A stretch of 64,000 nt of DNA from Candidatus Poribacteria bacterium. Its GTDB lineage: Bacteria > Poribacteria > WGA-4E > JAJDTR01. Location of the stretch: contig CBDCTK010000002.1 of NCBI GenBank assembly GCA_965222225.1, forward strand, positions 5,184,001-5,248,000, in the 5' to 3' direction. The stretch's first letter is position 1, and the number at the start of each line of letters is the position of its first letter. The notes under the pieces were generated by a model. The model ran no database searches. It saw only the letters and a program-made list of their open reading frames with translations, and had not been told where the DNA came from. Shown here piece after piece: positions 529 to 55,905 of the stretch. A program made the translations under genes and the position numbers.

Positions 529-789
529 TGAGGGACAAAACCTTGCTTGAGATAGAGTTTTCGAACTCAAGGACATACGCCAATTGAGGTTTGTAGGCTG
601 GGCAATTCGATGAGGCGAGCGAATTATGACTGCGATAGAACTCCCATAGAAATTTCTCTGAGATTGCAGAATCGTAGATGAAATTCTCAAAGTATTCAAA
701 GTATATAGAAACGCCGATTCACTGCGCAGCAAAAGACCTTGATTCATCAAGATTCGCATCGTGCTCCTCTATTCAGCGAGTTCCCTAAC

Positions 790-823
790 TGCACGGTCTG
801 GATTGATAAATCCAGACCGTGCA
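790..823. repeat. Perfect 15-bp inverted repeat (hairpin)
   Basis: TGCACGGTCTGGATT-GATA-AATCCAGACCGTGCA. Confidence 0.8.
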
Positions 824-971
824 CTTGAATGTGCTAGTCTAGCTACTCCGAGTGCGCGCTCACCGGGTAGACTAAAAATTTCTAACTAACATTTCTTAGT
901 TTTATCAGTTTTATCAGCAATTATTGCCGAAACAAATCGGCAGACTAAATAGTTACGATGTAAGATAACCA

Positions 972-1814
972 ATGGCGGGAAAGACAATTATCACCGCGGC
1001 AGTGGTAGGATCCAGTCCTGCGAAAGAGATGAATCCTGCTGTGCCGTACACACCGAAGGAGATTGCGGAGGCTGCCATCGTGTCTTGCCGGGCGGGAGCC
1101 GCCATTGCCCACATCCATGTGCGCGACCCGGAAACCGGAAAACCCGATTCATCGATTGAGTTATTTCGAGAAGTTGTTGATCGAATCCGTCAATCCTGCG
1201 ACATTGTGATTAATCTGACAACTAGCGGCTATAATATCACCGGTGACGACGTCATTGAAAAGCGCCTGGAACCTGTCACATTGGGGCCGGAAATCTGTTC
1301 ACTGGACATCGGTTCGGTGAATTTCGCGAATGCCGCGTTTGTCAATTCCCCGGAGTGGGGCAGGACTGCGGCGGCTCGGATGCGCGACCACGGGGTAAAA
1401 CCGGAGATTGAAGCCTTCGACGCGGGTCACATGCGTCAAGCTGTCAATTGGGTTGCGGAGGGACTGTTTGACGACCCGCCATATTTCCAACTGTGCATGG
1501 GGGTCGGTTGGGGAATTCAGGCCTCGCCGGAGAACCTTCTGCTTATGCAGAGGCTTGTGCCGCCCTCCTGTCCGTGGTCCGTTTTGGGCGTTGGAAGACA
1601 TCAATTGCCCATGATTACAATGGGCGTGATTTTGGACGGCCACATACGGGTCGGTTTTGAGGACAATATCTATGTCAGCAAAGGGGTGTTAGCTAAGAGC
1701 AATGCTCAGATGGTGGATATGGCTGCAAACGTGGTAGAGACCCTCCAACACCAAGTAGCCACGCCCGATGATGCGCGTCGAATACTGGGTACTTCTAGTC
1801 GTAGCACGAGCTGA
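972..1814 (+). CDS. 3-keto-5-aminohexanoate cleavage enzyme family (BKACE/DUF849)
   Basis: IITAAVVG, PYTPKEIA, AHIHVRDP, VKPEIEAFD, HIRVGFEDN motifs. Confidence 0.9.
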   Translation: MAGKTIITAAVVGSSPAKEMNPAVPYTPKEIAEAAIVSCRAGAAIAHIHVRDPETGKPDSSIELFREVVDRIRQSCDIVINLTTSGYNITGDDVIEKRLEPVTLGPEICSLDIGSVNFANAAFVNSPEWGRTAAARMRDHGVKPEIEAFDAGHMRQAVNWVAEGLFDDPPYFQLCMGVGWGIQASPENLLLMQRLVPPSCPWSVLGVGRHQLPMITMGVILDGHIRVGFEDNIYVSKGVLAKSNAQMVDMAANVVETLQHQVATPDDARRILGTSSRSTS

Positions 1815-2110
1815 CAACTTCGTTTCGACCTGCTGTCCTACCAAAGGGCGACTAACCGGAAATATACGGATAGCTTCAATCCTCATCTGTACGTTAATTA
1901 AATAGCACGTGTTCTAATCGTCGAGGGAATTTTCGGCTGCCTGTGAGTTCGATGTACAGATTCTGCGGTAGCATTGTCCTCTCTACGGAGGCGCACCGGG
2001 GGAAAAGACAACCCGGGTTTGCGGGTGCTTTTCCCCCTCACCTCGTTTCCTCTTGGGACATTTTGTGCCCTATATCCAACTGGAAGTCACTCGTACCGTA
2101 AGAATGCTAT

Positions 2111-2149
2111 AAAAAAGCACCCAACCAAGACATTGATGGGTGCTTTTTT
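2111..2149. terminator. Bidirectional intrinsic terminator
   Basis: AAAAAAGCACCCA...TGGGTGCTTTTTT between convergent genes. Confidence 0.75.
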
Positions 2150-2186
2150 AGGGTGGTTGGTAAGTAATGCGTTAGGTTTTTACCAT

Positions 2187-2513
2187 CTACCATCTATTAC
2201 CGCCACCACCACCACCGCTACCGCCACCGCGTCCCCGTCCACCGCCGCGTCCCCGTTCACCGCCGCGGTCTTCCCGAGGGCGTGCTTCGTTGACCTTGAT
2301 TGCACGTCCCTGTAACTCGCTACCATTAAGTTCCTGAACTGCTCGCTCGCCATCGGCTTTCTCTCGCATTTCGACGAACCCAAACCCTTTTGATTGACCA
2401 CTGTACTTGTCCATGATAATGTTGACAGCGTCAACTTCTCCGAAAGCCGCAAATAGCCCCCGCAATTCATCATCTGTGGCATCGAACGATAAATTGCCTA
2501 CGTAGATGTTCAT
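2187..2513 (-). CDS. RRM RNA-binding protein with Gly-rich tail
   Basis: MNIYVGNL (RNP2), KGFGFVEM (RNP1), RGG-rich C-terminus; start placed at MNIY. Confidence 0.92.
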   Translation of the reverse strand: MNIYVGNLSFDATDDELRGLFAAFGEVDAVNIIMDKYSGQSKGFGFVEMREKADGERAVQELNGSELQGRAIKVNEARPREDRGGERGRGGGRGRGGGSGGGGGGNRW

Positions 2514-53141: not shown

Positions 53142-53941
53142 GAGAGTGTTCACACAAAGATAGATAAGGCAATCTTCTGATACCGACGGAAGACCTCTGG
53201 GTCGCTCAAAGCAGTCCATAACTTCATGGCATTGTCCACCATCTCAAGTTTCTTGGATACTATTTTGGTGCGGCGTGTGAATCGTCCAAGATGATGGCGT
53301 GTATTGCTGTTATCACGTTTGACTGTTGCTGTCCCTGATTTCCCGATGTGATGACGCTCCGCAGGAAGTACCTTGGCAAACGCTTCCCAATTGTCAGTGT
53401 AATACTGGCAGTCACTTAAGTGTTTCACTTTGTCGAATAGCCGTCTGAAGGTATCAGCATCACGACCACCGATAACCCAGGCAACGGTTTTGCCTGTTTC
53501 ACGAGAAACTGCTTTGTGAATCCATCTTTTGTTTTTTTTGACCCGATAAAATGCCACATCTCATCAAATTCCAATTCACGGGTATTGATTGGAATCTCAG
53601 GCTCCGACAACAGGGCTGCTTCCTTTGCAAGCCATTTTTGAACAGTACTTGGCGATACATTAAACAAGTTGGCAATAGTGCCATAAGATGCTTTTGCAAG
53701 GGAGTAGAGAATTACTGCAAAAGCACGCTTGATGGTGGTTTGAGGGTTGGTTCTCTCGTCTCCCTCAACGAAATTATAACCGCACGTTTTACAACGGTAT
53801 CGCTGTTTGGAACGAACGAATCCGTTTTTCGTGACTTCCGAACTTTGACAGTTCTTACAGTTTGACATAATATCTCCTTCCTGACCTTTCTGGTTAGTTA
53901 GAGGAATTATATCATAAATCTATCTATATGGCAATACTCTC
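53142..53941 (-). mobile_element. IS1-family element with 8-bp TSD
   Basis: TSD CGAATTCA at 53134-53141 and 53942-53949; ends GAGAGTGTT / AATACTCTC. Confidence 0.9.
53150..53868 (-). CDS. IS1 transposase InsAB via -1 frameshift
   Basis: Zn-ribbon CKNC..CKTC, DEMWHF, A8C slip site at 53531-53539, YTDNW; expected catalytic E reads K (VKRDN). Confidence 0.85.
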
Positions 53942-54381
53942 CGAATTCACATCAATCTCACCGGCTGGATGATTGCGATGGGAATTTGTTGTTATCTGAT
54001 AACGTTAGGTCTTATCGAGATCGTGCATGAACACGAGGTTTCCGATTCGCACGATTGTTCTGCCTGCTTTTTCAGTGCGAACCACCTCGGAATTGCGCTC
54101 CAAGCTGTAGACCTCCCAAATCTAGACTCTTGTATCTCAATTCATCACCCTTTCGACCCGGCTTTTATATCCACGGCAGTTGTTGGCAATGTCCGTAGCC
54201 GCGCCCCACCAGCGTCCACTGCTTAATCCACCAGTTGTATCGGGATCTCAGTTTCTTTACCCAAGTTATTTCTGCCTATTTCCCGGTCGATTCTAGGTAA
54301 CCTTGATAACAGTCTAACTGTATCTACCTTCCCATCGGCATTCATGCCGGGAATACAATCTATTTATACTCGGAGGACAAC

Positions 54382-54921
54382 ATAATTAAGCAGTTTTTCA
54401 AACTATCTGTATTACTATTTGCTCTTTCCACGCTGCTTACTGCGTGTGGCGAGGACGATTCCGACCACGAAGAAGCGACTCACGTCGATGCCGACGGTTT
54501 TATCCTCTGGGTTGACGGCAATGAAATATATCGTCAATTTCAGGGAACAGAAACCGGCGGAATCACTATCAAGGTTGGAGATGAGCTAGATGTGATCGCC
54601 GTGTTCATAGACCGGCATAGCGAGGAGATATCCTTTGAGACCGAAGAAGGCGACGATGGCCACGGCGAGGAGGAAGATGATGACCATGACGAGGACGAGG
54701 CGTTTGGCTTAGCGCTATCCGAGTACGATCCATCAATCATTGAAATTCACCTTCCCGAAGGTGAGGAACACGGAGATGAAGGTGAGAACCATGAAGAAGG
54801 ATTCGCCTTTGAGGTGACAGGACTTCGCGTTGGGCAAACCGGAATTAAGCTCCAACTGTTGCACGGGGACCATCCCGACTTTACGGCAGCATTGCAGATT
54901 TCGGTGAATGTAAACCCGTAA
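54382..54921 (+). CDS. His/acidic-rich lipoprotein; start codon reads ATA
   Basis: GGAGG RBS, then ATA-IKQFFKLSVLLFALSTLLTAC lipobox in frame with ORF 54592; LLHGDHPDF. Confidence 0.7.
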   Translation: MIKQFFKLSVLLFALSTLLTACGEDDSDHEEATHVDADGFILWVDGNEIYRQFQGTETGGITIKVGDELDVIAVFIDRHSEEISFETEEGDDGHGEEEDDDHDEDEAFGLALSEYDPSIIEIHLPEGEEHGDEGENHEEGFAFEVTGLRVGQTGIKLQLLHGDHPDFTAALQISVNVNP

Positions 54922-54972
54922 AGGGCACAAACCTTAACGCACAAAACGCGAGACAACTGATTACGGGCTGTT

Positions 54973-55635
54973 ATGCCACTTCTGACAATCATTGACCTCC
55001 AAAAGGCTTACGTTTCGCCTGAAGGTTTCCAGACACCCATCATTGATATTCCCCATTTCGAGATGGAGGAAGGTACGCAGATTGCGCTCAGGGGAAGTAG
55101 CGGCGCTGGAAAAACGACGTTTCTCAATCTCATCGCCGGAATTCTGCAAGCCGATAGCGGACGCATCGTTGTTGCTGGCGAGGAGATAACTACCCTGTCG
55201 GAGTCCGGGCGTGACAGGTTGCGTGCCAGCCACATCGGCTACATCTTCCAAACCTTCAATCTACTCCCCGGTTACACCGCGTTAGAAAACGTCATGCTCG
55301 GCATGATGTTTGGAAAGGGGATTGATGCAACTTTTGCCCAACACCTGCTTGAGCGAGTGGGGCTTGGCAATCGGTTGGGATATCGACCATCGCAGTTATC
55401 CGTCGGGCAGCAGCAACGTGTTGCGGTTGCCCGCACCATCGCCAACCGACCCCAGTTGGTACTTGCCGACGAACCGACAGGAAATCTGGATTATCATCAC
55501 GCTAACGAAGCCATAGCGCTTATCCGCTAAATGTGCCATGAAAACAACGCCGCATTTCTCACCGTTAGCCACGATGCGGAAGTCTTGGGGCAGTTTGAGG
55601 AGGCAACAGATTTCGCACAAGTGAATCGTACATGA
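54973..55635 (+). pseudogene. ABC ATPase (LolD/ZrgB-like) with premature TAA
   Basis: GSSGAGKT, LSVGQQQR, ADEPTGNLD; TAA at 55528-55530 then in-frame ...VSHD H-loop. Confidence 0.85.
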
Positions 55636-55664
55636 GAAGCAGGGAATGATTGGTGTTAGATTTA

Positions 55665-55905
55665 GAGCCTGTTTGAAAAGTACATTTGTAGGGTGCGATC
55701 AAAGGAATGAATAATGGCTGCGATAGAGCCCCCTGCGCACCCTACGGGATTGAGCAAGGAAGAAACCGATCAAGCGAGAGCGAATATATCAACCGAGTGA
55801 ACAGCGAGAACGATAAAAATCTCAGTGCGACAGAAATCCTTTTTCAGGATAAAACTCGGTTCGAGGGCAAATGGCTCAACCCGAAATGGATTTTCAACCA
55901 GGCTC
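55665..55905. mobile_element. Non-autonomous MITE with IS5-type TIRs, carrying REP and 36-nt elements
   Basis: GAGCCTGTTTGAAAA ... TTTTCAACCAGGCTC flanked by TTA on both sides. Confidence 0.8.

Follow-up and report, generated by a model that had tools for sequence, protein, structure and literature searches.

The stretch of DNA analysed here, referred to as the window, comprises 64,000 nt of contig CBDCTK010000002.1 (positions 5,184,001 to 5,248,000; assembly GCA_965222225.1). It belongs to a Candidatus Poribacteria metagenome-assembled genome (MAG) from a sponge symbiont, with 5.70 Mb in 2 contigs. The intergenic regions of the window carry many copies of a 36-nt element, consisting of a conserved 29-nt core (ATCAA-NN-GA-NN-GAATA-NN-GA-NN-GCGATAG) and a tail of about 7 nt. 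Mobility of this element by insertion is supported by paralogous and orthologous empty sites, by nesting, and by a nested composite that recurs at different loci. With up to 3 mismatches, the threshold used for both window and genome counts, the core matched 20 times in the window, against 0.00 expected from 100 shuffles. A covariance model trained on these 20 copies returned the identical 20 full copies (37-57 bits) together with 4 weak partials, and a token scan added at least 12 further partial units, all at 17-18 intergenic loci and in both orientations. A sequence-only reading of this DNA had reported about 30 full or partial copies at about 15 intergenic loci in both orientations, and its coordinates were correct by pattern matches and direct reading.

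Several copies stand singly in host hairpins. The copy at 13285..13320 (+ strand, 57.1 bits) lies in a terminator-like hairpin, GAAACCG...CTCGGTTTC, and that at 23320..23355 (+) follows GTAGGAGCG in a repetitive extragenic palindrome (REP) of the GTAGGAGCG-ATC-TCC... type. The copy at 36512..36547 (+) replaces CA at the apex of the REP GTAGGGTGCG-CA-CTGCGCACC, and in the same composite repeat the CCAGCGGCG-CG-ACAGGTA hairpin has its CG, at the 3' foot, replaced by the copy at 36580..36615 (+). Another copy, at 55698..55733 (+), replaces the apex of a GTAGGGTGCG...GCGCACC REP. A degenerate full copy (3 mismatches, 37.4 bits) with one extra ATAG tail unit was found at 610..655 (+) by the pattern, the covariance model and the tokens. 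Two further sites serve as empty references, namely the composite host repeat GTAGGGTGCGCACTGCGCACC...CCAGCGGCGCGACAGGTA at 10087..10140 (+) and the hairpin GAAACCG...CTCGGTTTC at 51836..51868 (+).

Other loci are arrays in which full copies adjoin or interrupt partial ones. At 4246..4320 (+), a full copy (4265-4300) lies between a resident's 5' part and a tail-only unit, and at 55768..55839 (+) another (55788-55823) lies between a 5' partial unit and a unit that is only a tail. At 4455..4525 (+), the resident 5' part (ATCAA GT GA GT ...) is followed by a full copy (4474-4509) and then by the resident remainder GC-GCGATAG-AAATCC, and the GT and GC of the split outer halves still pair. A hairpin unit at 13365..13435 (+) leads directly into a full copy (13389-13424) with an extra ATAG-AGATCCC tail, while at 21939..22009 (+), adjoining a GTAG-REP, two 5' partial units of 17-18 nt ending in ATAG precede a full copy (21974-22009). 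At 25793..25873 (both strands), a resident + strand copy is split between G22 and C23 by a - strand copy (25815-25850), and the locus ends with the resident's CGATAGAGATCCC tail and an extra tail. The resident 5' part ATCGAGCGAACG at 27789..27836 (+), flanked by CCCCAGAGGG and a GCCCCGC hairpin arm, has a full copy (27801-27836) lodged behind its loop G, and at 30015..30083 (+) a resident copy common with species G005 carries a nested full copy (30038-30073).

Arrays also directly follow stop codons. The array at 37124..37206 (+), directly 3' of the stop codon of a gene fragment (GAAATAG), contains degenerate partials and a full copy (37171-37206), and at 38978..39035 (+) a full copy with tail units lies directly 3' of the TAG stop of the FG-GAP gene 37385-38977. 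After the stop of gene 42792-44438, the array 44440..44613 (+) holds full copies at 44440, 44532 and 44578 and several tail units. The array at 48248..48340, after the stop of gene 46643-48247, mixes + and - copies, with the full copy 48282-48317 on the - strand.

About nine paralogous genes stand in tandem across 34457-51826; they combine FG-GAP_2 repeats with a FlgD-Ig / type IX secretion C-terminal-like domain. The paralogs share 64-75% DNA identity with each other, and element arrays directly follow several of them. One paralog is split into 34457-35501 and 36674-37123 by an IS5/IS4-like insertion sequence (IS) at 35508-36388, which carries a DUF4096 + DDE_Tnp_1 transposase in open reading frame (ORF) 35589-36305 (- strand) and is multi-copy in the genome and its relatives. 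The end sequence of this IS, CCTGTTTGAAAAG, also heads the composite REP-bearing repeat at 55650 and elsewhere. In addition, the stop codon (30025-30027) of ORF 28873-30027 sits in the GAATAA loop of an element copy, as it does in G005; thus the last codons of this gene are supplied by the element.

Insertion sites, nesting and distribution

Empty and filled forms of the same hosts occur side by side in the window. The REP at 10087 (GTAGGGTGCG-CA-CTGCGCACC...CCAGCGGCG-CG-ACAGGTA) is empty, whereas in the REP at 36502 the CA and the CG are each replaced by 36 nt. Similarly, the hairpin at 51836 (GAAACCG ATTG TTTTTCC...CTCGGTTTC) is empty, while in the like hairpin the copy 13285-13320 follows GAAACCG. 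Both pairs had been proposed in the sequence-only reading and were confirmed letter for letter. In the whole genome, 1054 copies were found, and the reversed pattern gave 0 matches in each of the 31 genomes searched. The 5' end is sharp, with a G preceding 945 of the 1054 copies; behind GCGATAG the tail reads A-R-A-T-C-C-C, is 46-79% conserved, and conservation ends beyond it. In matches to the REP GTAGGGTG-..GCA..-GC.CACC, the centre measured 6 nt in 167 of 213 cases and 40 nt (element + 4 nt) in 21.

A paralogous empty site was available for 228 of the 409 copies with motif-free flanks. Among the 160 best filled/empty pairs, the empty site was longer by 0, 1, 2 and 3 bases in 24, 55, 38 and 24 pairs, the other 19 falling in smaller classes; that is, 0-3 bases were replaced at insertion and none were duplicated. 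Over 83 distinct empty contexts, the three bases before the cut are G (69%), C or G (89%) and G (77%), hereafter G-S-G, and C or A comes after it. Cuts fall within the 5' arm, 1-3 bases in or among its last pairs by the apex, or else at the hairpin's 3' foot. The hosts are diverse and include GTAG-REPs, terminator-like hairpins, heptamer repeats and the element's own hairpin. The claim of a tiny element entering GC-rich stem-loops is thus supported, with entry after a G and the loss of a few bases. The element has no ORF, and direct reading of its ends (ATCAA... and ...GATCCC), which do not match as reverse complements, revealed no terminal inverted repeats; with the pairs lacking duplications, this bears out the earlier description on all three counts.

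Orthologous comparisons pointed in the same direction. Most intergenic regions were too divergent for alignment against four sister species, but comparisons anchored at gene ends worked. The copy 30038-30073 is absent from G005, whose resident copy is intact with near-identical flanks, and the orthologous REP GTAGGC.GG-CAT-CTTGCCCCGCC is filled in G003 and empty in G005. The array after the stop of gene 37385-38977 is present here and not at the orthologous stop in G001, G005 and G002, and related but differently composed arrays occupy the orthologous place of the 48248 array in G005 and G002.

About one third of all copies are located inside another copy. In 317 cases a copy directly follows the co-oriented 5' part of a resident, and 40 copies entered inverted, at CTATCG. 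If a full copy splits a resident, the outer 5' part and the tail unit should belong together, and they pair at both positions in 38 of 54 arrays built as [5' part][full][tail unit], compared with 20.8 +/- 2.7 in shuffles (maximum 32 in 1000); pairing between tail unit and inner copy occurs in only 15. Among 922 arrays, the head-head-tail-tail architecture (HHTT, 82) and its triple form (HHHTTT, 14) are commoner than head-tail-head-tail (HTHT, 31). A loop-nested composite, in which a copy follows the loop G of another at a spacing of 51-52 nt, recurs at 12-14 loci with varied flanks.

The element is restricted to a small part of the phylum. A scan of 176 Poribacteria genomes with up to 2 mismatches gave at least one match in 22 and none in 154. 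High copy number was confined to the window's genus (g1; 10 of 10 genomes including this one, 684-1403 copies) and to a second genus of another family (g4; 4 of 4, 224-251 copies), which together form the high-copy set of 14 genomes with more than 200 copies each, while eight other genomes had 1-21 copies. The covariance model, run on 61 genomes of the order, agreed with this distribution. The g4 copies share the 29-nt core and carry a tail TCTT... in place of AGATCCC. In a species-representative collection, exact matches were present at at least 84 loci, and among the matches listed all were from Candidatus Poribacteria bacterium MAGs. Viral contigs gave 0 matches and plasmids only chance-level ones (E 0.4-5), and Rfam 15 at gathering score had 0 matches in the window. 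The genome holds 256 stem variants, the commonest with 67 copies, and their outer and inner pairs are widely recombined; therefore, many source lineages have been involved, all of them retaining the fold described below. Of one set of 19 copies with an identical 36-mer, 14 are located after AGGGTGCG, and identical 36-mers were found in up to 6 different left contexts.

Conserved hairpin and strand asymmetry

An irregular hairpin is conserved on the strand that reads ATCAA..., with the arrangement ATC-AA-NN-GA-NN-GAATA-NN-GA-NN-GC-GAT. It consists of three helices of 2-3 bp, between which lie two internal loops, one AA/GC and one of tandem G.A, with a GAAUA-type cap closing the end, and the invariant ATC...GAT is able to extend the stem. 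Among the 1054 genome copies, Watson-Crick pairing holds at the four NN pairs in 740, 951, 973 and 867, compared with 111-403 in wrong-partner controls, and G.A and A.G occupy the two central positions in 981 and 1012. In the 20 window copies, the named structure is paired at 92.9%, against 76.4 +/- 2.2% in shuffles (0 of 500 as high) and 16-46% in slid-partner controls. Wobbles at the NN pairs are G:T or T:G in 466 instances and A:C or C:A in 75 (1054 genome copies), indicating selection for the fold on the written strand. As the helices covary and tolerate G:T, propagation of the element depends on a hairpin folded in one strand. In energy the hairpin is weak: with RNA parameters, 4 of the 5 copies tested have it as their minimum-energy fold, at -2.7 to -6 kcal/mol with z of -0.13 to -0.95 in those four. 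The earlier statement that there is no strong hairpin therefore holds for folding energy, and overlooked the strong covariation of an irregular hairpin.

The orientation of the copies is not random with respect to GC skew. Where skew is positive, 171 copies lie on the + strand and 309 on the - strand, and where it is negative the numbers are 407 and 164 (Fisher 2e-31). Counted per locus, the folding strand is on the C-rich strand in 450 of 661 cases (about 68%, p 4e-20). There is no preference relative to neighbouring genes, whose orientation was taken from crude ORF calls (335 sense and 292 antisense in co-directional contexts), and the skew bias persists within both gene orientations (65-78%). 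A function in 3'-UTRs, which would require sense orientation, was rejected on this ground. The GTAG strand of the two commonest host REP types has the same skew bias (74% and 75%), and the element is co-oriented with the GTAG head in 282 cases compared with 49; copies with neither tag nearby still show a bias of 67%. Since the orientation bias is shared with GTAG-REPs and independent of gene direction, it points to a single-strand step tied to replication. On contig C2, both element and REP orientation track the local sign of the skew. The skew of this contig is itself fragmented, as its sign changes 31 times at 50-kb smoothing and no simple pattern of two arms emerges, which suggests many rearrangements or assembly joins.

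Candidate enzymes and alternative explanations

The enzymes named as possible mobilisers in the sequence-only reading fared differently. An IS110-type recombinase was rejected, with PF01548 having 0 matches in this genome and in 0 of the 4 g4 genomes. A reverse transcriptase (RT) was also discarded as the mobiliser: RVT_1 had no match in 5 of the 14 high-copy genomes (G006, G007, G009, G012 and G021), and the single RT of this genome (C2:4499560-4501599; PADLOC AbiA/DRT, E 4e-76) is AbiA-type and does not co-occur with the element. It is likely an anti-phage defence gene; AbiA-type RTs are present in 6 of 10 g1 genomes and 1 of 4 g4 genomes, as well as in the element-free genome G030, and several homologues have in-frame stops. 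An HUH enzyme, including a REP-associated tyrosine transposase (RAYT), fits in that the Y1 domain (PF01797) is present in all 14 high-copy genomes, though its presence in 25 of 31 relatives makes this unspecific. Five Y1 loci of this genome were inspected, and at one of them a RAYT gene is flanked by inverted REPs carrying the element. At L132 and L133 (in G006 and G003), RAYT-like Y1 genes appear to carry GTAG-REP hairpins within their coding frames, and the genes lie in clusters of partial copies. A long autonomous version was sought by a split-hairpin search, which peaked only at 51-52 nt and stayed at background level from 300 to 8000 nt. The multi-copy ISs between copies, IS1595-like and IS4/IS701-like as named from their ORFs rather than by a family search, lack the motif at their ends, which are more than 170 nt away. 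No long version bounded by the two hairpin halves was thus found, and these ISs are unrelated to the element.

TnpA-REP is described as acting only on single-stranded DNA and needing GTAG and a stem mismatch, and IS200/IS605 elements as having no inverted repeats, no target repeats and one active strand, linked to the lagging-strand template (PMC3333891). We consider it probable that the element is a non-autonomous family multiplied by copy-and-insert, with HUH (Y1, RAYT/IS200-like) enzymes as the best available class. The data show that one strand carries the irregular covarying hairpin and that new copies enter behind G-[C/G]-G, positioned at or beside the apex or 3' foot of a GC-rich hairpin, with 0-3 bases replaced and no target duplication. 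Insertion or survival may involve single-stranded DNA at the replication fork, and the enzyme would act in trans. Its candidate class is the HUH Y1 single-strand transposases, which are strand-specific, need mismatched hairpins and make no duplication. These traits fit most of what is seen, except the replaced bases and the sign of the strand bias, and we therefore favour a trans-acting HUH-type enzyme, with an RNA route second. A bolder version is that the element may be an independently evolved transposon of the smallest class, a folded single strand at the fork moved in trans by REP-associated RAYTs that are otherwise thought domesticated. We regard this as rather unlikely, although, if true, the element would be a REP parasite exposing how RAYTs cut and join, and the still unexplained small dispersed repeats (SDRs) of cyanobacteria would be accounted for in the same way.

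The age of the family was judged from sister species and related samples. The window stretch is contained in 20 of the 24 sequencing runs listed, from 11 studies, and six RNA runs share words with it. Against window positions 20001-40000, most contigs of samples X3, X4, X5 and X10 end at elements; strain identity there is about 99.4%, as estimated from the 81-86% share of 31-letter words. The contigs bridging 23320, 27801 and 38978 in four related samples all carry the element, so that no current activity was seen in what was a weak test. A contig joint skipping 45 nt at 36533-36579 was not used, as its sides comprised only 24 letters. Of 907 distinct 36-mers in the genome, 820 are singletons, and element arrays at some orthologous places are common to species and differ by added units. 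The singletons, the shared arrays with added units and the presence of the element at every bridged site indicate an old family with low recent activity, which has nevertheless gained copies since the species split. Presence/absence polymorphism was seen between species, at two orthologous sites, and not among the four related samples.

Several observations weigh against active, HUH-driven insertion. The abundance of singletons and the uniformly filled bridged sites are among them. No enzyme or gene was linked to the element among the IS110, RT and Y1 candidates, and Y1 also occurs in genera without the element (g6 3 of 3 genomes, g3 5 of 6). A Y1 remnant flanked by two copies was rejected as the mobiliser, because the flanking elements sit in its REPs and intact homologues in five relatives lack such flanks. 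HUH transposons insert precisely. Here, by contrast, insertion replaces 0-3 bases and the position of the 3' end shifts by about a base. With DNA parameters nothing folds in the element copies. The idea that the junction lies in a predicted loop was not supported either (17 of 135 junctions compared with 29.7 expected, no enrichment). The lagging-strand template is conventionally the G-rich strand. The folding strand is mostly on the C-rich strand, a sign opposite to the IS608 precedent, and the link to replication is drawn from skew only, because the skew is fragmented and the origin unmapped.

Three other explanations were weighed. In RNA-mediated spread, copies would be transcribed, the RNA hairpin would be recognised by an RT and its complementary DNA joined at DNA 3' ends near stalled hairpins with small losses. 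Such a route would explain a covarying fold that is predicted with RNA and not with DNA parameters, the tolerance of G:U-type wobble, and imprecise junctions with a variable 3' end. It is hard to reconcile with the RVT_1-negative high-copy genomes, with a sole RT that is patchy in g1 and g4, and with an orientation that tracks GC skew and not the direction of neighbouring genes; nor was a 5'-truncation signature seen in a solo-copy count whose strict patterns misclassify full copies. We consider the RNA route improbable. Copying without dedicated mobility, by co-amplification of host repeats, gene conversion, or polymerase template switching at hairpins that copies a nearby element, is quite improbable. 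Filled REPs of one type often share a stem variant, as after AGGGTGCG, which would follow if a filled REP were copied whole; orthologous arrays have been inherited and then remodelled, and the replacement of a few bases resembles repair-type events. However, a 36-nt unit with a sharp 5' end in so many unrelated hosts, identical 36-mers in 6 left contexts, and a nested composite that recurs amid unrelated flanks all argue against this, and stem covariation across the 256 variants needs selection on the fold itself.

The element might also be a functional structured motif selected locus by locus, such as a protein-binding site, an RNA stability element or a terminator module, and not selfish at all. 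Conservation of fold and sequence in two genera and the many copies directly after stop codons are compatible with this. Against it stand the lack of gene-orientation preference, the interruption of other copies by a third of all copies, positions that differ between species at orthologous intergenic regions, the lack of any match in most genomes of the phylum and of any Rfam family match. We therefore judge such a function highly improbable. Thus, among the explanations considered, non-autonomous copy-and-insert multiplication with an HUH-type enzyme remains the one we prefer.

Comparison with known systems

No report of such repeats in Poribacteria was found in the main texts searched. The element shares properties with several known systems. 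Like REPs and REPINs, it is short, structured, highly repeated and strand-specific, with the same orientation bias; it is hosted by GTAG-REPs, and element-carrying REPs flank a RAYT gene. However, it has no GTAG head, is not a near-perfect palindrome owing to two conserved 2x2 internal loops, and inserts into REPs. Unlike REPINs, inverted doublets of the element were seen only at the g4 locus L040, where the 29-nt core forms REPIN-like inverted doublets with a conserved spacer of about 20 nt and the arms have different stem variants. The likeness to IS200/IS605 lies in the absence of inverted ends and duplications, an imperfect hairpin in subterminal position, entry 3' of a specific short sequence and one replication-linked active strand. 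Those transposons, however, need two distinct ends and insert precisely, whereas this element is one hairpin with 0-3 bases replaced and a variable 3' end; no long version with tnpA between such ends was found, and the strand bias has the opposite sign.

In integron attC sites, structure is conserved over sequence, one strand folds as single-stranded DNA with unpaired bases, recombination takes place after a G, and orientation to replication matters. The element is far shorter, dispersed instead of arranged in cassette arrays, and has no cassette. It also resembles MITEs (miniature transposable elements with inverted repeats) and the mosaic repeats BOX, RUP, Correia and ERIC in being non-autonomous, intergenic and arranged in modular arrays. 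Those repeats exceed 100 nt and have terminal inverted repeats and target duplications, while the element has neither.

The closest likeness is to the SDRs. To our knowledge, very small mobile repeats have been described once, in 2008, in one cyanobacterial family, with the mechanism left open. Elhai and colleagues reportedly described SDR1-SDR8 of Nostocaceae as repeats of 21-27 nt with hundreds of copies and no ORF. The SDRs are said to share a hairpin with compensatory changes, to sit inside HIP1, heptamer repeats and mini-transposons, and to nest in themselves; they are reportedly confined to one coherent lineage, with the mobiliser unknown, and retro-insertion through RNA and an RT is said to have been proposed for them. 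By this description, the Poribacteria element is alike in its length of tens of bases, its hundreds of copies and lack of an ORF, its covarying hairpin, its insertion into other repeats and its own copies, and its restriction to one coherent lineage with an unknown mobiliser. The earlier statement that no described element is like it thus appears to be wrong. The element differs from SDRs in its phylum, in measuring 36 nt instead of 21-27 nt, and in its target, G-S-G adjoining the GC-rich hairpins of GTAG-REPs. HIP1 is not enriched in this genome (120 occurrences compared with about 87 expected), and a HIP1 link was rejected on this ground. We know of no report of a strand bias with GC skew for SDRs, such as that seen here. 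A later paper states that, among HIP1-rich cyanobacteria, SDR-like repeats were not found outside Nostocaceae (PMC5861425).

Short-read assemblies are broken at every element copy, which matters for assembling the genomes of sponge symbionts. By the reported description of SDRs, the element represents a second, independent case of very small mobile repeats, in a phylum unrelated to cyanobacteria. This case offers the 14 high-copy genomes, several of them single-contig (G002, G003, G005 and G012 among them), and clues to mechanism in the form of a defined G-S-G target, a fold with conserved mismatches, co-orientation with the REP strand recognised by RAYTs, and a bias that follows GC skew and not transcription. 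These clues make the movement of 36 bases a testable question, namely which gene tracks the element and which strand is cut by which HUH protein.

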